From assembly GCA_003222205.1 (NCBI GenBank), contig QHVC01000043.1, forward strand, positions 1,944 to 65,943: a stretch of DNA of 64,000 nt, in the 5' to 3' direction. The number at the start of each line of letters is the position of its first letter. Within the stretch, counting starts at the first letter, position 1. The DNA comes from Gemmatimonadota bacterium. GTDB taxonomy: Bacteria; Gemmatimonadota; Gemmatimonadetes; Gemmatimonadales; GWC2-71-9. Positions 2,796 to 63,825 of the stretch are shown here, one piece after another. Position numbers and translations under genes: made by a program. The notes below the pieces were generated by a model, which searched no databases, was not told where the DNA came from, and saw only the letters and a program-made list of their open reading frames with translations.

Positions 2796-2800
2796 CACCG

Positions 2801-2840
2801 GACGGAGAAGGATGGAGGAGGACGGAGGACGACGGAGAAG
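2801..2840. repeat. Tandem array, 4 x 10 bp (GACGGAGAAG / GATGGAGGAG / GACGGAGGAC / GACGGAGAAG)
   Basis: Read directly from the sequence; it starts 6 nt after the DUF1003 stop codon. It is the inverted partner of the array at 3301-3331. Confidence 0.9.
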
Positions 2841-2916
2841 GGGCCTCGTGCGAGAATCCGCTACAGTGTGCGGTTGTTTGGTTTGTGTACCAGGAATCCG
2901 CCGCCATCTTGTTGCT

Positions 2917-3288
2917 GTGGATCACTACGAACGCCTCGTTGCGTGGCGGGAGTGTCACGTGCTCGCCAAGATGGTGTATGCGGCCACGCGAGCATTTCCG
3001 AAAGACGAGCGATTTGGACTGACTTCGCAAGCACGGCGAGCCGCGTTCTCCGCACCCGCTAACATCGTGGAAGGCTCGGCCAAACGTGGGGCTCTGGAGT
3101 TTCGGCGTTTCCTAGATATCGCCTTGGGCTCGCTCTCGGAAGTCGGTTACATCCTACGATTCTCTTGGGAGATAGGCCTTCTGGAAGACCAGATGTATGG
3201 CGATCTTCGAAACGCTCACGGCAGGGCTCGGGCTATGACCTGGAAGCTTTACGTCGCTGTAGGAAAGCGGTCGACACCCCGCGGTTAG
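2917..3288 (+). CDS. Four-helix-bundle protein (23S rRNA intervening-sequence protein / Avd-like family)
   Basis: GTG at 2917 gives (M)DHYERLVAWRECHVLAKMVYAATRAFPKDERFGLTSQARRAAFSAPANIVEGSAKRGALEFRRFLDIALGSLSEVGYIL... This carries the family signature (F..E.fgLtsQlrRAa.Si..NIaEG....s..ef..Fl.iA.GSl.E). GC is visibly lower than in the flanking genes. Confidence 0.8.
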   Translation: MDHYERLVAWRECHVLAKMVYAATRAFPKDERFGLTSQARRAAFSAPANIVEGSAKRGALEFRRFLDIALGSLSEVGYILRFSWEIGLLEDQMYGDLRNAHGRARAMTWKLYVAVGKRSTPRG

Positions 3289-3300
3289 GACGCCTCACGG

Positions 3301-3331
3301 CATTCTCCGCCCTTCTCCTTCCTTCTCCGTC
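3301..3331. repeat. Tandem array, 3 x 10 bp, inverted copy of the 2801-2840 unit (reverse complement GACGGAGAAG GAAGGAGAAG GGCGGAGAAT)
   Basis: Read directly. 3320-3331 (TCCTTCTCCGTC) is the exact reverse complement of 2801-2812. The array abuts and overlaps the stop codon of the convergent acyl-CoA dehydrogenase gene. Confidence 0.9.
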
Positions 3332-4550
3332 AGTCTATGAGATCCCCGAGCAGCTGCCGCGCGATCACGATGCGTTGGATCTCGCTCGTGCCTTCCCCGA
3401 TCTCGCAGATCTTGGCGTCGCGCATCATGCGCTCGACCGGGTACTCCGTGGTGTAGCCGTAGCCGCCGTGCAGCTGCACGGCTTTGATCGTCGCGCGCAT
3501 CGCCAGCTCGGAGGCGTAGAGCTTCGCCATCGCGGCCTCCCGCTTGAACGGGTGACCGTGCTGTTTGAGCCACGCGGCGTGGTAGACGAGATGCTTCGCG
3601 GCCTCGATCTCCGTCGCCATGTCGGCGAGGGCGAAGTGCACGCCCTGGTAGGTGGCGATCACCCGACCGAACTGCTTGCGTTGACTGGTGTAGGCGAGAC
3701 ACTCCTCCAGCGCCCCCTCGGCGATTCCCAGGGCCAGCGCCCCGATGCCGATGCGCCCGCCGTCCAAAGTGTGCAACATCTGCGGGAATCCGCTCCCCAC
3801 GGTGCCGAGCACGTTTTCCTTGGGGACCATCGCGTCCGCGAAGATCAGCTCCCGCGTGTCGGAGGCCCGCCAGCCGAGTTTGTCTTCTTTTTTTCCCGCG
3901 TGAATGCCGCCCATCTTTGCGAGCTCGGGCGCGTGCCCGACCCCGACGCGTGCCGCCTCGTTGAGATCGGTGGTGTCCTTGGTCACGATGAAGGCGGTGA
4001 TGCCGTGGGTCTTCTGAGCTTTGGGATCGGTCCGCGCCGTGACGACAAAGACCTCCCCCACGCCGGCGTGAGTAATGAAGATCTTCGAGCCGTTGAGGAC
4101 GTAGTGATCGCCCTTGTCAACGGCCGCCGTCTTGGTGCCGCCCGCGTCCGATCCGGCGCCGGGCTCGGTGAGCCCAAAGCCGGCCAGCACCCGGCCCTGC
4201 GCGAGCAGGGGGATGTAACGGTGCTTCTGGTCGTCGGTCCCGAAGTCCACGATGGGCGAGGTGCCGAGGGTCGTATGCGCGCTGACCGTGATGGCATGGC
4301 TCGCGTCCACCTTCGCCAGCTCGTGGATCACCGTGATGTAGGAGAGGTAATCCATCCCCGCGCCCCCGAGCCCCTCGGGCCACGGGATGCCGAACAGGCC
4401 CAGTTCGGCCATGCGTTTCACGTTGTCCCAGGGGAAGCGGCTGTCGAGATCGTAGGCCCGCGCGCTGGGTTTCACCACGGTTTGCGCGAAATCGCGCACC
4501 ATGTCCCGCACCTGCAGGTGGTGATCGGAGAAGTACAGCGCGTCGTGCAT
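3330..4550 (-). CDS. Acyl-CoA dehydrogenase
   Basis: 406-aa ORF with ..[15 protein letters not shown].., ..[12 protein letters not shown].. and a C-terminal ..[35 protein letters not shown].. typical of short/medium-chain ACADs. Confidence 0.92.
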
Positions 4551-5942: not shown

Positions 5943-6730
5943 ACGCCCTGCGACTTCTCGCCAGCATGGCGCTGGTGGCCGCGACCGCGTGCGGGAGGCG
6001 GGGGGACGGGGGGGGGGCGGGGGGGGGCGACCAGGCCAAGAAGCCGCCGGCGTCAACCATGATCATCGGTATCGACGTGAGCGGCTCATTCCGGGACTCG
6101 CGCCTGTACGACGACGCCATTCAGTTCGCGTCGCTGTACATCTATGCCCACCTGAACGGGATCGGGGAGCTCAAGGTCCCGACGGCGCTGTTCGTCAGCT
6201 CGATTGGCGGCGCCCGCGTCGGCGAGCCCAAGGCGTTCCACCCCATCAACGACTTCCAGGGGCGCACGCCGGACCAGATCGCCGCTGATCTGCACTCCTG
6301 GTTCCCGCAAACGGACCTCTATACAGACTTCAACGCGTTCTTCGGGCGCGTGAGCAGCCTGGTGCGCGAGCGGGGACTGATCCTCGCCCCGTTGAACGTG
6401 GTGGTCTTGAGCGACGGCATGCCGGACGTGCCGCCGGGGACGCGCCTCGCCGCCAACCAGAACCCCTACACGCGCATCGACGTCTCGCCGCTCGAGTTCC
6501 TGTCGCGCAGCGTGACGGTACGCATCCTGTACGCCAGCCCCCAGGTGGGGGAGAACTGGAAGCGGCTGGTGCACCACAAACGCGTGCGGTTCTGGACCCA
6601 GGAGGCGCAGGTGATGGCCGGCTGGCACCAGCAGTACAAGCCGAATCTGCCGCTGGCGCAGCAGGCGGATCTGTGGAAATGGGTGCGCGACAACGTGGAC
6701 TTCCGGGCGCGAGCGGGCAACCTGTTCTAG
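5939..6730 (+). CDS. VWA-like lipoprotein
   Basis: Signal peptide with lipobox (LVAATAC), a Gly-rich linker, then a MIDAS-like IIGIDVSGSF and later VVVLSDGMPD, as expected for a von Willebrand A fold. The ATG overlaps the upstream stop (ATGA). Confidence 0.6.
   Translation: MNALRLLASMALVAATACGRRGDGGGAGGGDQAKKPPASTMIIGIDVSGSFRDSRLYDDAIQFASLYIYAHLNGIGELKVPTALFVSSIGGARVGEPKAFHPINDFQGRTPDQIAADLHSWFPQTDLYTDFNAFFGRVSSLVRERGLILAPLNVVVLSDGMPDVPPGTRLAANQNPYTRIDVSPLEFLSRSVTVRILYASPQVGENWKRLVHHKRVRFWTQEAQVMAGWHQQYKPNLPLAQQADLWKWVRDNVDFRARAGNLF
6000..6027 (+). repeat. Homopolymeric G tracts (G6, G10, G9) inside the lipoprotein linker
   Basis: The runs are 6000-6005 G6, 6008-6017 G10 and 6019-6027 G9, translated as RGDGGGAGGGD. 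Confidence 0.95.
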
Positions 6731-10871: not shown

Positions 10872-11254
10872 CGCGGCACCTCCACCATCATGCGGAGCAG
10901 GGCGGTCGAGAACACCTTTCCCTGGGCGTCCGTCTTGAGCGAGATCGTGCCGCCGCCGTCGAGCGCGCCGTGCAACAGGAAATTGAGGGCCCGCAAGTTC
11001 GGCAGCTCGAAGCGCTCGACCGGTCCGGTGATCATCCCCTTGAAGTGCCGGGCGACCCGGGCGGCGGTCACGTGCTTGACAAGGTGCGCGTAGTACTCGG
11101 GTTTCCGCGCGATGAGCCCGACATTGGCCGTGTCACCCTTGTCTCCAGACCGGGCGTGAGCGAGGTCGAGCAGCAGGACCTTGCCCTTCCTGTCCGACGG
11201 TCCGACCGTCCGACCGTCCGACGCCTCCCTTAGACCGCGACCACGTCCACGCAC
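10868..11254 (-). CDS. AtuA-associated small protein (DUF4387-like)
   Basis: Conserved core [29 protein letters not shown]...[30 protein letters not shown]. The only canonical in-frame start is GTG at 11254, which overlaps the atuA end by 25 nt. The N-terminus is encoded by the 8-bp repeat array, so the start is uncertain. Confidence 0.6.
11192..11222. repeat. Tandem array, 4 x (GTCCGAC + 1 nt), period 8
   Basis: Units begin at 11192, 11200, 11208 and 11216. On the coding (minus) strand they read GTCGGAC. The array begins 8 nt downstream of the atuA stop codon. Confidence 0.95.
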
Positions 11255-18541: not shown

Positions 18542-20101
18542 CTAGAAGAACACCGGCTCGCGGTAGGCGCCCCAGACCCGCTCCAAGGCGTGGCGGATCT
18601 CGTACAGCGTGCAGTCGGCCCGGGCGCAGTCCAGCATCGCGGGGAGCACGTTCTCGTCGTGCTCAGCGGCGGCCCGCAGCGCCGCCAGCCGCCGCTCGAC
18701 GAGCCCCGCGTCGCGGCGCTGCCGCAGCTGCGCGAGGCGCTGGCGCTGGCTGGCTTCGGCGTCGTTGGAGATCTTGAGAATCTCCACGGGGTGATCGTCT
18801 GCCGTGACGTACTCGTTGACGCCCACGATGACGCGGTCGCCGGCCTCCGCCTGCCGTTGGAACTCCGCCGCCGACCGCGCGATCTGGCGTTGGAACCACC
18901 CGTTCTCGATCCCCTTCACCACACCGCCCCCCGATTGGATCTCCGCGAACAGCGCGTCGGCCTCTCGCTCGAGCTGGTCGGTCAGCGCCTCGACGTAGTA
19001 GGACCCGCCCAGCGGATCGACCACGTCGGCGACGCCGGTTTCGTGCGCGAGGATCTGCTGCGTCCGCAGCGCCACCTGGACGGCCTGCTCAGTCGGCAGC
19101 GCCAGGGTCTCATCCAAAGAATTGGTGTGCAGGGACTGCGTGCCGCCGAGGACCGCGGCGAGCGCTTGATAGGCGACCCGCACGATGTTGTTGTGCGGCT
19201 GCTGGGCGGTCAGGGTCACCCCGGCCGTCTGTGAATGGAAGCGCATCATCCACGACCGTGCATTCTTGGCCCCGTACTTCTCTCTCATGTGCCGCGCCCA
19301 GATGCGGCGCGCCGCGCGCAACTTCGCGATCTCCTCGAAAAAGTCGTTATGGATATCCCAGAAGAAAGACAGCCGCGGCGCGAAACTGTCCACGTCGAGG
19401 CCGCGCGCGATGCCGCGCTCGACGTACGTAAAGCCGTTCGCCAGCGTGAAGGCGAGCTCCTGGGCGGCCGTGGCGCCCGCCTCGCGGATATGGTAGCCGC
19501 TGATCGAGATCGTGTTCCACTGCGGCGTGTGCCGGGGACACCACTCGAACATGTCCACGATGACCTTGAGCGCCGGTTCGACGGGATAGACCCAGGCGTG
19601 CTGGGCCATGTACTCTTTGAGAATGTCGTTCTGGACGGTCCCCCGCAGTTTGGCGACGTCCACCCCCTGCCGCTCCGCCGCGACCACGTAGAAACAGAAG
19701 AGGATCGCCGCCGGTCCGTTGATGGTCATCGACGTCGAGACCTGATCGAGCGGAATGCCGCGAAACAGATCTTCCATGTCCACGGCGCTCGAGATCGCGA
19801 CGCCGCACTTGCCGACCTCGCCCTCGGCGCGGGCGTGGTCGGAGTCGTACCCCATCAGCGTCGGGAAGTCGAACGCCACCGAGAGCCCCGTCTGACCCCG
19901 CTCGAGCAGGAAGTGGTAGCGCTCGTTGGTATCCGCCGCGCTCCCGAAGCCCGAGAACTGCCGCATCGTCCACAGCCGCCCGCGGTGCATCGTCTGATGG
20001 ATGCCGCGGGTGAACGGATACCGGCCCGGCTCACCCAACCGCTCCGCCAGGTCTCCGGTCAGATCCTCGGGGGCATAGACCGGCTTTTTCTCGATGGTCA
20101 T
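18542..20101 (-). CDS. Methylmalonyl-CoA mutase, large (catalytic TIM-barrel) subunit
   Basis: ATG at 20101 overlaps the meaB stop (ATGA). ..YPFTRGI...[16 protein letters not shown].. and ..[15 protein letters not shown].. are diagnostic. Confidence 0.93.
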
Positions 20102-21168
20102 CGGATCGCTCCGCTCCGCAGCTGCTCCAGAATGTCGGCCGCCACGTCGTAGGGGCTGCGCCGTCCCTCGGCCATCTCGGGCAGCTGCTGGGCGAGGAGC
20201 TCCGGTGCCGGAGTCTCCTCCCAGACCCACTGCCGCAGTCCCCGCTCCACTACCGCGCGGGTGCGCTCGGCGAGGCGCTCGCGCCGCCGCGCCACGAGCC
20301 GCCCGCTCGCGTCGAGGAAGGTCCGGTGGCGGTCCAGCGCGACCGCGAGCTCGGCTACGCCCTCGCCGGTCGTGGCGACTGTCGCGAGCACCGGTGGCTC
20401 CCAATGGTCGGACGGTCGGACGGTCGGACGGTCCGACTGAGGGCGCTTACGGTCAGACTGTCCGACCGTCCGACGGTCCGACCGGTGGTGGTGGGCGGGC
20501 AGGTTGCGAAACGCGTTGCCCCGGCGCAGGCCCAGCATCACTTCGATCTCCTGCCGCAGCGTGTCGCCCCCGGGGCGGTCGCTCTTGTTGATCACGAACA
20601 CGTCGGCGATCTCCATCACGCCCGCCTTCAGTGTCTGGATGGCATCGCCGGACTCCGGGACCAGCACGAGCGCGGTGGACTCGGCGCTGCGGGCGATGTC
20701 GAGCTCCGTCTGCCCCACGCCGACCGTTTCGATGAGGATGCGATCGAAACCGAACGCCTCGAGGACGTCGGCCACCTCTTCCGTCGTCGTGGCGAGGCCG
20801 CCGAGGGAGCCGCGGGTCGCCATCGAGCGGATGAACACGCCGGGATCGAGGCTCACCGACTCCATGCGGATGCGGTCGCCGAGCAGCGCGCCACCGGTGA
20901 ACGGGCTCGTCGGGTCCACCGCAATCACCGCGACGCGGAGATCCTGCCCGCGGTAGCGCTGCACGAGGCGCTCGGTGAGGGTGCTCTTCCCCGCTCCCGG
21001 CGGTCCCGTGAGGCCGATGCGACGCGCGCCACGGCGGCCGACGCGGGCGTGCGCGTGGGTGAGCACGTCTTCACAGCCGGCGCGGCGGTTCTCCACGAGG
21101 CTGATGGCCCGGGCCAAGGCGGCGGTGTCGCCGCGATCGAGCGCGTCCACCAGAGCCCGGGTCGTCAT
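20098..21168 (-). CDS. meaB: Methylmalonyl-CoA mutase-associated GTPase MeaB/ArgK, carrying an in-frame repeat-derived insertion
   Basis: P-loop [16 protein letters not shown] and NKSD motifs are present. The segment [31 protein letters not shown] is encoded by the 20407-20482 repeat hairpin. Confidence 0.9.
20407..20482. repeat. Inverted pair of 8-bp-period arrays (4 + 4 units of GTCSGAC) forming a ~31-bp hairpin
   Basis: The left arm has units at 20407, 20415, 20423 and 20431; the right arm at 20452, 20460, 20468 and 20476; the centre is 14 nt. Base-by-base pairing shows 2 mismatches and 1 G-U. Confidence 0.95.
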
Positions 21169-31378: not shown

Positions 31379-31735
31379 CCGGGTGGAGTCGCGTTGGAGC
31401 AGGATGGTGCCGGTGCGGAGTGCCTGACGGACTCGTTCCCCGATGCTGGCTGGCCCGCGGCGCACCAGGATGCGCGTCGAATCGAGCGTGCCCAGGCTCG
31501 CCGGCGCGTTGCCGTAGAAGACGACGTCCACCCCCGCCTCGCGCAGCACTCGCGTCGCCGTTCTGGCCAGGCCGGGTTTGCCGCTCGCGTTCAGGACTTC
31601 GACCATCACCCGCTCGCCCTGATCGCCCGGGATAGTGGCCGGCCCACTTGACGGCCGACTGCCACGACAACCGAGCACGACGATCAGGATTGCCAGTCCG
31701 ACCGTCCGACAGTCCGCCCGTCCGACGATTCTCAT
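31313..31735 (-). CDS. LytR_C domain lipoprotein
   Basis: ATG at 31735 overlaps the upstream stop (ATGA). Lipobox VVLGC is present. ..VEVLNASGKPGLA......L...G..V.......... matches the LytR C-terminal domain pattern. Signal-peptide residues 4-13 are encoded by the 8-bp repeat array. Confidence 0.65.
   Translation of the reverse strand: MRIVGRADCRTVGLAILIVVLGCRGSRPSSGPATIPGDQGERVMVEVLNASGKPGLARTATRVLREAGVDVVFYGNAPASLGTLDSTRILVRRGPASIGERVRQALRTGTILLQRDSTRLLDASVLLGADFAPPRSEFHP
31696..31726. repeat. Tandem array, 4 x (GTCCGAC + 1 nt), period 8 (third unit degenerate: GTCCGCC)
   Basis: Units begin at 31696, 31704, 31712 and 31720. The array begins 6 nt after the upstream stop and 7 nt after the LytR_C start codon, reading on the minus strand. 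Confidence 0.95.
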
Positions 31736-51317: not shown

Positions 51318-53587
51318 CCGGGGGCCCCCCCCCCACGCCCTTCCCGGGCGACCCCCCGATCACCCTGGCGCTGGTTCGCGAGCACAACCTCACCTCCGAC
51401 GAGTACCGCCGCATCGAGGCGCTCCTGGGTCGCGCGCCCACGTTCGCCGAGCTTGGCATTTTCTCCGCGCTGTGGAGCGAGCACTGCTCCTACAAGCACA
51501 GCAAGTCCGTCCTCAAGACGTTGCCGGTGACCGGTCCTCAAGTGGTCCAGGGCCCGGGGGAGAACGCGGGCGTCCTGCGCCTTCCGCACGGCTGGGCGGT
51601 CGCCTTCAAGATCGAGTCTCACAACCACCCCTCCGCCGTCGAGCCGTACCAGGGGGCCGCCACCGGCGCCGGCGGCATCCTGCGCGACGTGTTCACCATG
51701 GGTGCCCGGCCCGTCGCGCTCCTGAACAGTCTGCGCTTCGGGTCCCTCGACGACGCGCGCAACCGCTATCTGTTCGGCGGCGTCGTGCGCGGCATCGGGG
51801 ACTACGGCAACTGCGTCGGCATCCCGACTCTGGGCGGCGAGGTGGACTTCGGCGCGGGCTATGCCGGCAACCCGCTCGTCAACGCGATGTGCGTCGGACT
51901 GCTCAAGGAACGCGACTTGATCCGCGCCCGCGCCCACGGCGTCGGCAACGTGCTGTTGTGCGTGGGGTCACGCACCGGCCGCGACGGCATCCACGGCGCC
52001 TCGTTCGCCTCCGAAGAGCTGACCCGCGAGAGCGAACAGCGCCGCCCCCAGGTTCAGGTCGGCGATCCGTTCACGGAGAAGCTGCTCCTCGAGGCGAGCC
52101 TCGAGCTCATCGCCTCGGGGCATATCGTGGCGATCCAGGACATGGGCGCGGCGGGGCTCACGTCGTCGTCGGCCGAGATGGCGGCCCGCGGCGGCGTCGG
52201 GGTCGAGATCGATCTGGCGCTCGTGCCGACGCGCGAGCCGGGGATGACGCCCTACGAGATCCTGCTCTCCGAATCCCAGGAGCGCATGCTGGTCGTCGCC
52301 AAACCGGACCGTCTCGCGGAGGTCCGGGCGATCGCCGCCAAGTGGGAGCTCGACGCCACGCCGGTCGGCCGCGTCACCGACGACGGCATGTATCGCTGTC
52401 GCTGGAAGGATCAGGTCGTGGTGGAGATTCCGGGTCGGCCCCTGGTCGAGGACTCCCCCGTGTGTCACCCGGAGGCGCGCGAGGACGAAGCGATCGCCCG
52501 CCTGCGGTCGTCGCGCCCCACGCCCCACACCCCACTCCCCACGCCTGAAGAGTGTCTCCTGCGCCTGCTCGACTCACCCTCCATCGCCTCGAAGCGCTGG
52601 GTGTTCGAGCAGTACGACTCGACGGTGCAGGCGAGCACGGTGATCGCGCCGGGAGGAGACGCCGGGGTGCTACGCGTGCGCGGGGAGGCGTTCGGCGTCG
52701 CGGTGAGCACCGACGGCAACGCGCGCTATGTGCTCCTCGATCCCTATGAGGGAGGCAAGGCGGCCGTGGCGGAGGCGGCCCGCAACGTGGCCTGCACGGG
52801 GGCACGACCGCTGGGCATCACCAACTGCCTGAACTTCGGCAACCCCGAGCGGCCCGCCGTGTTCCAGCAGTTCAAGGAGGCCTGCCGCGGCATCGCGGAC
52901 GCGTGCCGGGCGCTGGGGACGCCGGTCACGGGCGGCAACGTCTCTTTCTATAATGAAAGCCCGACCGGCGCCGTCCCCCCGACGCCGGTGATCGGCATGG
53001 TGGGGCTGCTCCCGCGGGTCGACCACGCCGTCCCCAGCTTCGCGCGCGCCGCAGGCGACGCGGTCCTCGTGCTCGGCAGCACGCGCGCGGAGCTGGGCGG
53101 CTCGGCGCTGTGGGAAGCGGTGCTGGGCTTTACCGGCGGAGAGCCGCCGCGGGTCGACCTCGAGGCCGAGCGCCGCCTCGTCGACCTGCTCGTGACCGCC
53201 GCCGAGCGCGGGTTGCTGCGCTCCGCGCACGACTGCTCGCACGGTGGGCTGGCGGTCGCCCTGGCTGAAGTGGCGATGGGCGGGCCGTACGAGGAGCACC
53301 CCTTCGGGCTCGACGTCGACCTTACGTCGTACGCCGCACGACTTAGTCCTTACGAATTGCTGTTTAGCGAGTCGCACGGGCGAGCGGTCGTCACGTGTGC
53401 GCAGGATCGCGCGGCGGTGGTCGTAGCGCTCGCCGCGGAGCTCGGGGTTCCCGTGCACCGCGCCGGCGTGGTCGGCGCTCCGAATGGCACGTTCCGCGTC
53501 ACGCTGCGCGACGGCCAGATCGCCCGCCCTGTCGCGGCGCTGCGCAGGGTATATTTCGAAGCAATCCCGCGGCGCATGGGAGACTAG
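51314..53587 (+). CDS. purL: Phosphoribosylformylglycinamidine synthase subunit PurL
   Basis: ..[29 protein letters not shown].. and ..[23 protein letters not shown].. are present. GTG overlaps the upstream stop. Confidence 0.93.
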
Positions 53588-63462: not shown

Positions 63463-63470
63463 GGGGGGAA

Positions 63471-63825
63471 TGGAGGCGCGGGGAATCGAACCCCGGTCCG
63501 AATCTGACTCCGATGCCGCTCCTACGTGCGTAGGCGACGCTTTTTGAGTCTCACTACCGTGGCGCCTCGCCGGCCCCGGCAGCAACAAGCCCTTTTACAA
63601 CTCTCGCGCAACCCGTTCGGGCCCCGGGTCACACCAGCCCGACTTTGCGATACGTGAGCGCCGCCTCAGGCGGGCTGCCACTCACGCAGGTGCGTAAGCC
63701 GAAGCTTACGCAGCCAGGGCCAACTCAGTGTTGGCAGTTAAAAAGTGCCAGTTGTTTTTCGAGGTGACTGACGACCTCGGCACGCAGCAACACCCTCATC
63801 AAACCCGTCGAAACCTGTCGCCCCC
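63471..63825 (-). ncRNA. ssrA: tmRNA (SsrA), tag peptide (A)ANTELALAA
   Basis: The minus strand starts GGGGGCGACAGGTTTCGACGGG and ends GGACCGGGGTTCGATTCCCCGCGCCTCCA. The 7-bp acceptor stem contains a G3-U pair. The tag reading frame GCC AAC ACT GAG TTG GCC CTG GCT GCG TAA lies at 63706-63735. CCA is not encoded. Confidence 0.93.

Follow-up and report, generated by a model that had tools for sequence, protein, structure and literature searches.

The gene meaB of a Gemmatimonadota bacterium (GenBank assembly GCA_003222205.1, contig QHVC01000043.1, positions 1,944 to 65,943) carries within its reading frame a 76-nt hairpin made from two facing arrays of an 8-nt repeat, four units on each side. 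The hairpin lies at positions 20407-20482 of the 64,000-nt stretch of DNA analyzed here, hereafter called the window. The gene, the hairpin and the other features discussed below are listed in Table 1. Judged by position, meaB and the methylmalonyl-CoA mutase gene share an operon. The MeaB protein of the window is 100% identical to that of a Gemmatimonadetes metagenome-assembled genome (MAG).

Table 1. Positions of the repeat units, arrays and genes in the window. Arms are named as they appear on the mRNA or, for the gene-containing cassette, from left to right.
Feature	Position	Strand	Remarks
meaB coding sequence	20098..21168	(-)	356 aa; PF03308, E = 5.7e-87
Methylmalonyl-CoA mutase gene (PF01642)	18542..20095	(-)	directly 3' of meaB
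GTCGGAC units	starts 20407, 20415, 20423		meaB hairpin
GTCCGAC unit	start 20431		meaB hairpin
GTCAGAC unit	start 20452		meaB hairpin
GTCCGAC units	starts 20460, 20468, 20476		meaB hairpin
5' arm on meaB mRNA (G-rich)	20452..20482	(-)	4 units: GGTCGGAC CGTCGGAC GGTCGGAC AGTCTGAC
14-nt loop	20438..20451	(-)	CGUAAGCGCCCUCA on mRNA; encodes part of ...DRKRPQ...
3' arm on meaB mRNA (C-rich)	20407..20437	(-)	GTCGGACC GTCCGACC GTCCGACC GTCCGAC
Single array	11192..11222	(-)	4 units; stop/start junction of AtuA (PF07287) and AtuA-ferredoxin-like (PF23544) genes
Single array	31696..31726	(-)	4 units; lipoprotein-type signal peptide n-region (MRIVGRADCRTVGLAILIVVLGC) of LytR_C protein
G-rich left arm	2800..2842	(+)	~4 units of decamer GGACGGAGAA; gene-containing relative of meaB hairpin
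Low-GC gene, PF05635 / TIGR02436	2908..3288	(+)	23S rRNA intervening-sequence protein, Avd-like four-helix bundle; start codon uncertain
C-rich right arm	3298..3336	(+)	TTCTCCGCCC-type units; complementary to 2800-2842

The hairpin had been noticed in an earlier reading of the sequence (the original prediction), and its account of the unit positions, the unit types and the 14-nt center was borne out by a direct check. The very stable stem of about 31 bp with one G-U pair that it described is also there: the mRNA (minus) strand folds at -65 kcal/mol, compared with -37.7 ± 3.8 kcal/mol for shuffled sequences (z = -7.3), a value equaled in none of 200 shuffles, and the mismatches in the stem fall at the spacer positions. 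The loop is partially conserved among type-A orthologues. A pattern of two consecutive units matches the window 12 times, where 0.29 matches are expected, and 12 matches were reached in 0 of 100 shuffles. All of these matches are confined to the hairpin and to 11192-11222 and 31696-31726, the two places where the unit was said to recur. The repeat unit is free of stop codons in all six frames and translates as VGRSDGRT or, in the opposite direction, as RPTVRPSD; the meaB frame was correctly described as open through the hairpin. At Rfam gathering thresholds nothing matches the hairpin, and the whole window yields only a tmRNA gene (63468-63825, minus strand, RF00023, 159.6 bits). The same scan found no rRNA in the window; the hairpin sits in the coding sequence of meaB, not in helix 9, 25 or 45 of a 23S rRNA.

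In the protein, the hairpin corresponds to about residues 229-254 (26 residues), in a variable loop flanked by the G4 motif (NKSD) on one side and the W-x-PPV strand on the other. The distance from the NKxD region to W-x-PPV is about 49-56 residues in the window MeaB and ranges from about 5 (6cum, an unaligned gap) to 25 residues (3md0, from M. tuberculosis) in the solved MeaB/ArgK homologues that were aligned, which agrees with the short linker that the original prediction gave for characterized proteins. An AlphaFold2 model made with 42 homologues has predicted local distance difference test (pLDDT) values below 50 at residues 219-253, between a helix at 201-211 and a strand at 260-262, and the extra segment is therefore read in this model as a disordered surface loop.

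Among 120 MeaB homologues, the motif SD.RTVG.SDRK..SD.PTVRPSD or derivatives of it occupies this site in most Gemmatimonadales proteins with identities as low as about 72%. The segment is absent from characterized MeaB, and no homologous segment was encountered in MeaB from unrelated phyla, as expected of the lineage-specific insertion that had been postulated. At the DNA level, 80 metagenome loci and L015 provided 81 orthologous loci, from 79 of which the linker could be extracted and folded. Most Gemmatimonadales orthologues, down to about 66-72% identity, have a hairpin at the exact meaB site, but the hairpins are built from different units: GGTCGGAC, GGGCGGAC, GGTTGGAA, GATGGGC and others. 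The GGTCGGAC/GTCCGACC form is found in the window, L112-L115, L123, L127, L134 and L015, GGGCGGAC/GTCCGCCC in L126 and L128-L130, GGTTGGAA/TTCCAACC in L133, L139, L155, L158, L162, L164 and L178, and GATGGGCN/GCCCATCN in L132 and L144, while L116, L140 and L157 use other units. L118-L124 retain one arm and a single unit, some lineages have non-pairing G-rich repeats of 9-10 nt, and a few have a short linker. In a neighbor-joining tree of MeaB, hairpins are supported throughout the upper clades. Judged from these comparisons, the meaB hairpin is neither a recent nor a one-off insertion of the window genome. The original prediction, that a small palindromic element invaded a coding region without destroying it, thus stands in part: the hairpin is a copy of a dispersed family and the frame is intact, but the event is not recent, since orthologues at 66-72% identity carry the hairpin too.

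What has been conserved at this site appears to be the repeat and its pairing. When the 5' arm of one lineage is paired with the 3' arm of a second, the calculated duplex energies form diagonal blocks that correspond to the unit classes; the window's own arms pair at -67 kcal/mol, as against -18 to -37 kcal/mol with type-D arms. When 11 hairpins of types A and B were aligned without gaps, with the arms joined by an artificial GAAA loop, 86.5% of the cells were paired and six pairs had changed on both sides. The covariation score was 0.089, compared with 0.038 in shuffles, and was reached in 0 of 500 of them; sliding the register reduced the paired cells to 16-43%. From a plain MAFFT alignment, which puts sequences with three and four units out of register, RNAalifold derived only a weak consensus (-9 kcal/mol) for 21 orthologous hairpins.

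The mean pairwise difference between eight type-A meaB orthologues places the constraint more precisely. At codon position 3 of the flanks the difference is 0.43 (n = 325), and at those arm core positions that fall on codon position 3 it is 0.098 (n = 16), as low as which was found in 0 of 100,000 resamples. Conservation is thus about four times stronger at core repeat positions than at synonymous sites of the flanks, while the spacer, or eighth, position of the unit differs by 0.5-0.8 even where it falls on codon positions 1 and 2. In these alignments, variation goes with the 8-nt phase of the unit and with arm pairing rather than with codon phase, and we therefore infer that the constraint acts on the nucleic acid and that the loop peptide is a passenger. 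A T-to-G change is common to three of the four 5' units of L125 and unmatched in its 3' arm, and in L126 and L129 the same change of the 5' units is matched in the 3' arm. This pattern fits changes that spread within an arm first and then across to the other.

When one genome per species was scanned for at least three consecutive exact units, at least 111 stretches were found, and among the matches listed only one is a meaB locus. The meaB hairpin is therefore not a one-off low-complexity stretch, the alternative named in the original prediction. Nearly all of the stretches listed come from Gemmatimonadota, with a few from Acidimicrobiia, Opitutales, Streptomyces and Microcoleus, and several of the samples are phylogenetically non-independent. 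Arrays occur alone or in pairs, the latter separated by spacers of 6-145 nt. Four units is the modal length (three units in 44 arrays, four in 68, five in 11 and six or more in 20), although the scan minimum of three units means that the classes under four are undercounted. Some spacers hold a small hairpin of their own or another palindromic repeat. By a crude test of GC content at third codon positions (GC3), 11 of 93 classifiable copies (about 12%) lie in frame in coding sequences, the context having been judged from open reading frames (ORFs) and GC3, not with a gene finder; the other copies are intergenic or at gene ends. The in-frame hosts include valyl-tRNA synthetase (ValRS), PheT, a copper ATPase, RarA and a protein kinase, as well as an rRNA methyltransferase, an ABC ATPase and a rhodanese. 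At L018 (1375-1489), two aldehyde-dehydrogenase domains of an open frame of 1135 codons are separated by an in-frame GGTCGGAC hairpin whose spacer has 53 nt; this hairpin may have joined two neighboring genes into one.

In relatives, the AtuA and AtuA-ferredoxin genes overlap at an ATGA stop/start. The array at 11192 occupies exactly this place and is absent from the closest relative, L112, which has 90% DNA identity there. It replaces the ATG, leaving no in-frame ATG, GTG or TTG upstream (11160-11235), and the downstream AtuA-ferredoxin gene possibly starts at CTG. L155, L135 and L168 have a different GGTCGGAC-containing insertion at this junction, after the ATG. The array at 31696 encodes a positively charged n-region (31696-31735), and the ATG of its LytR_C gene overlaps the TGA of an upstream HD-domain gene.

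Several other repeats were seen along the way. Two runs in the window, one of G with GGGAGGCGGG-like units (5993-6029) and one of CGCCCCA repeated 4.6 times that would encode a Pro/Thr-rich stretch (52514-52545), lack any complementary partner in their vicinity and do not look related to the hairpin family. In an Acidimicrobiales MAG (L005, 4220-4366), about 18 units of the same octamer stand in the frame of a long ORF and are read as (SDGRTVGR)n, and in a member of the Desulfobacteraceae (L047) the loop of a hairpin made of heptamers (AGTAAGC/GCTTACT) contains a GGTCGGAC array. A further palindromic repeat dispersed in Gemmatimonadota, approximately GTCACCCTGAGCGCAGCGAAGGGGGC and its complement, occurs at L030 (2509-2578), L088 (4507-4574) and L111 (2971-3053), and a copy of this type lies within the spacer of a GGTCGGAC hairpin in L107. 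A full-text literature search for the two-unit 15-mers returned no paper mentioning GGTCGGAC arrays, and nothing relevant was found on palindromic repeats of Gemmatimonadetes.

Paired arrays of similar design also enclose genes. The window itself contains such a cassette (2800-3336), which resembles a 23S rRNA intervening sequence (IVS) outside rRNA, starts right after the stop codon of the upstream gene, and has arms that are 34 nt long, 82% complementary and 463 nt apart. Its gene encodes a PF05635 protein (IVS protein, IVP), a family that also comprises Avd, the accessory protein of diversity-generating retroelements (PMC10053308). At all 14 loci examined, PF05635 genes on either strand are bracketed by a G- or purine-rich left-hand array and a right-hand array complementary to it; a Nostoc PCC 7120 copy beside an ISL3 transposase shows a right arm only. 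The bracketed loci span Gemmatimonadota, cyanobacteria, Xanthomonas and Azospirillum, and their arm units, outside the GGTCGGAC type, are 7-11 nt long. Seven of the PF05635 loci lie in the sequences analyzed above, and in L068 and L084 the arms consist of the GGTCGGAC/GGTCAGAC unit itself. The gene-bearing copies have a lower GC content than their hosts. L084 (726-1067), with arms of 20 and 8 units and an internal stop codon in the PF05635 gene, is probably a decaying copy, and L192 and L202 represent one conserved PF05635 locus that has different, co-varying 11-nt units in two related organisms.

The settings are diverse. Gemmatirosa (L215) has a PF05635 gene between such arms. On plasmids of Nostoc punctiforme and Trichormus variabilis, IVP genes are flanked by heptamer arrays (AGTCAGG/AGTCAGA) and their complement, and in a type III-B CRISPR operon on a plasmid of Picosynechococcus sp. 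PCC 7003 (L216, NZ_CP016476.1 126115-127402), cas10 and cmr3 are separated by a PF05635 gene that has AGGAGATA/TATCTCCT arms. A genuine 23S rRNA IVS of Azospirillum has tandem arms, purine-rich on the left and complementary on the right. In Xanthomonas (L218, L219), accB and accC are separated by the orthologue of XCC0516 (PDB 2GSC), which has GGGAATC-type arrays on either side; one identical protein sequence, P0256, is recorded on 383 contigs under the NCBI name 'MULTISPECIES: Xanthomonas'. Mobility of IVP was considered from proteins present on 19-25 contigs and rejected, as these represent one conserved locus sampled in many metagenomes.

A common feature of these pairs is their orientation. 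In about 1.75 Mb searched for tandem arrays, whatever their unit (period 6-12), that form inverted pairs no more than 600 nt apart, the G-rich arm comes first in 53 of 54 pairs, including all 28 whose unit belongs to another family than GTCSGAC. As meaB orthologues account for about 11 of the 54 and a few loci enter twice, roughly 40 are independent. Ordinary inverted repeats away from the arrays, which were masked, split 125:108. Such an asymmetry of the arms is not required by a hairpin as such.

With moderate confidence, and on the strength of sequence comparison, the meaB hairpin can be regarded as a gene-less, stem-only, IVS-like member of these convergent pairs of G-rich tandem repeats, located in a protein-coding gene. 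The arms at meaB, four GGTCGGAC units and four GTCCGACC units around a short spacer, are pairs of the kind that elsewhere form a stem around PF05635 genes. The element would have been acquired once, in an ancestor of the Gemmatimonadales clade, and would act and persist as a nucleic-acid hairpin. Units within an arm would be homogenized by replication slippage, and the arms would stay complementary through template switching inside the hairpin, selection for the stem, or both; slippage within arms and template switching between them would explain homogeneity and complementarity without any function. The conservation of the unit sequence itself, both at meaB and genome-wide, suggests a sequence-specific partner or template. 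Two properties would make the hairpin tolerable: its place in a loop predicted to be disordered and a unit that cannot introduce a stop codon. In the mRNA, the duplex of about 31 bp is a potential substrate for RNase III, as are the stems of IVSs, and ribosomes would have to melt it. Its net effect in meaB is probably neutral to mildly modulatory.

Several observations weigh against this interpretation. Among relatives at 86-87% identity, a few are without one arm (P0008, P0009) or both (P0013), and in many lineages the site is occupied by G-rich repeats that form no hairpin, so that the stem is, by this comparison, dispensable. A single ancient acquisition is likely, but the neighbor-joining tree falls short of proof because its lower clade is poorly resolved, with the linker types intermingled. 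A lag-8 scan of about 890 kb of the relatives' MeaB loci with their flanks found 8-nt arrays only in the meaB linker. The spacers of non-orthologous hairpins, 6-74 nt long, are unrelated, the arrays being all that they have in common, which also removes the fixed, whole-length sequence implied by the original comparison with Rickettsia palindromic elements (RPEs). As to transposition, neither a target-site duplication nor a mobilizing enzyme was identified: comparison of 11192 with the array-free L112 gives no clean duplication, as the flanking bases differ as well, and no RAYT or other transposase or mobilizing enzyme was seen beside the arrays, although no systematic search for Y1 enzymes was made. 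Finally, the link between the gene-less hairpin and the IVP cassettes is a putative one, consisting of a shared architecture and, in some cases, a shared unit.

The most serious alternative, though still an unlikely one, is that the hairpin is a selected mRNA structure that regulates the meaB-mutase operon, either through a ribosome pause between the G and C-terminal domains or through an RNase III site that becomes exposed when translation is slow. The stem is kept by compensatory unit changes across lineages that are near synonymous saturation, the mutase gene comes directly after meaB, and IVS stems of like architecture are known substrates of RNase III (PMC4990558). Against this, arms have been lost even among close relatives, whole sub-clades have non-pairing repeats, and arrays are also found in unrelated genes and in intergenic DNA; moreover, a purely structural role would leave the conservation of the unit sequence unexplained. 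A regulatory role on the meaB-mutase mRNA, as an RNase III site or ribosome pause, is possible from the sequence, but repeated arm loss in close relatives makes it unlikely to be essential.

It is more doubtful that the hairpin arose on the spot, the meaB loop being a hot spot for repeats grown by slippage, with the second arm made by fold-back or template switching and no pre-formed insert. This would fit the many repeat types at the meaB site, including partnerless G-rich repeats of 9-10 nt, the within-arm homogenization seen in L125, and the AtuA junction, which gained GGTCGGAC-containing sequence in two separate lineages. However, the identical 8-nt unit is present at more than 100 unrelated loci in many genomes, and at 11192 it forms a block that an orthologue of 90% identity lacks. 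Independent re-creation of the unit is unlikely without a template or sequence-specific factor.

A slightly less probable and frankly speculative idea is that the arrays are written rather than moved: both 3' ends of a break or staggered cut would be extended by repeated copying of a short template and then joined, either directly or around a captured fragment. The synthesis might be reverse-transcriptase-like or by slippage, possibly with an Avd-like PF05635 protein as cofactor. Writing on break ends is proposed to account for the inward-pointing 5'-to-3' G-rich strands, a geometry like that of a telomere-telomere fusion, for the unrelated spacers and differing units, and equally for the PF05635 genes and rRNA IVSs found between arms and the in-frame copies in essential genes. 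If true, array writing would be a new bacterial insertion or repair system, present in at least three phyla.

Selection on the peptide, for example for a charged, flexible loop of 26 residues that contacts the mutase, is very improbable. The motif is recognizable in many orthologues, and the loop belongs to the G domain, presumably not far from the mutase-contacting regions of known complexes. However, spacer positions that fall on the non-synonymous codon positions 1 and 2 vary most and core positions that fall on codon position 3 vary least, the peptides of lineages with other units are unrelated although the stem is kept, and the loop is disordered in the AlphaFold2 model. An artifact of assembly or sequencing in a repeat-rich metagenome bin can practically be dismissed: repeats of this type often terminate short contigs, but the hairpin is present in independent assemblies from different projects, in frame and with sensible divergence. 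Two other readings were rejected, a CsrA-type site with GGA motifs, since several unit families have no GGA and the motifs are sequestered in the stem, and an intrinsic terminator, since no U-tract follows the stems.

If the hairpin is indeed an IVS-like stem, the finding joins three separate puzzles: the four-unit arrays of G-rich 7-8-nt repeats, the 23S rRNA IVSs and the Avd-like PF05635 genes. The orientation of the arms provides a strict and testable geometric rule, G-rich arm first. The meaB copy is a stem carried in frame in a conserved enzyme across a bacterial order, with conservation at the level of DNA or RNA, not protein, and offers a natural system in which to study stem maintenance, RNase III cutting in mRNAs, the slowing of ribosomes and the role of the IVS protein. 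For the annotation of Gemmatimonadota genomes, the arrays account for unusual low-complexity loops, missing start codons (11192) and breaks between contigs.

The RPEs, which the original prediction gave as the only precedent, are found in frame in housekeeping genes, where they add a surface peptide and leave the protein intact. They are 100-150 bp long and have a family consensus over their whole length. The present family resembles them in its in-frame copies in conserved genes (meaB, ValRS, PheT, the copper ATPase, RarA and others), but differs in that only the 8-nt unit is common and the spacers differ, as well as in phylum and in the association with IVP genes. Like repetitive extragenic palindromes (REP/REPIN) and MITEs (miniature transposable elements with inverted repeats), the arrays are short, dispersed and mostly extragenic, and often form hairpins as inverted doublets. 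Unlike REP/REPIN, each arm is a tandem array of 7-11-nt units, not a single imperfect palindrome, and the gene found between arms is PF05635, not RAYT. MITEs combine terminal inverted repeats with a target-site duplication; the arms here are inverted, and no clean duplication was seen at 11192, where the flanking bases also differ. The short tandemly repeated repetitive (STRR) sequences of heterocystous cyanobacteria are intergenic heptamers. The dispersed tandem heptamers of Nostocales that flank IVP genes, such as the AGTCAGG/AGTCAGA arrays of N. punctiforme and T. variabilis, resemble these and are candidates for, rather than assigned members of, the named STRR families.

In short IVSs, the loop lacks a gene. 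More generally, the IVSs of 23S rRNA have stems of terminal complementary sequence, are excised by RNase III, may contain an ORF for the S23p protein and have a low GC content (PMC4990558). Their origin is unknown and they have been discussed as selfish or formerly mobile; hosts of IVSs, with or without the S23p/IVP ORF, include Coxiella, Leptospira and Salmonella (PMC4990558). The meaB hairpin shares with them the long stem of terminal complementary sequences (about 31 bp, -65 kcal/mol). Unlike gene-bearing IVSs, its loop has 14 nt and no PF05635 ORF, although its siblings (2800-3336, L068, L084) carry one. It also lies in a translated coding region, whereas excision by RNase III is known only for the IVSs, and arms in the form of clear tandem arrays, as in the meaB family, are not described in the IVS literature consulted.

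The GGGAATC repeats of Xanthomonas and the GGGGAYT repeats of Nostoc form dispersed arrays with a preference for four units (Rehm et al. 2015, PMC4692102). Convergent pairs of the GGGAATC repeat number 70 to 75 per Xanthomonas genome, 89-93% of the Xanthomonas and Nostoc repeats are intergenic, and they form G-quadruplexes in vitro, with a function that is unknown (PMC4692102). The terms 'S23' and 'four helix' do not occur in PMC4692102. The family of the meaB hairpin is similar in having a short G-rich unit in tandem, the same preference for four units and convergent pairs able to form stem-loops; both families are mostly intergenic, with an intragenic share of about 7-11% in PMC4692102 and about 12% here. 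It differs in its 8-nt unit, which has GG only and not GGG or GGGG tracts, in its phylum, and in the clade-conserved in-frame copy at meaB, the like of which is undescribed in PMC4692102. The closest relatives of the meaB hairpin are thus the GGGAATC-type repeats of Xanthomonas and Nostoc and the stem-loops of rRNA IVSs, both closer than the RPEs, which are alike only in that they are tolerated in frame.

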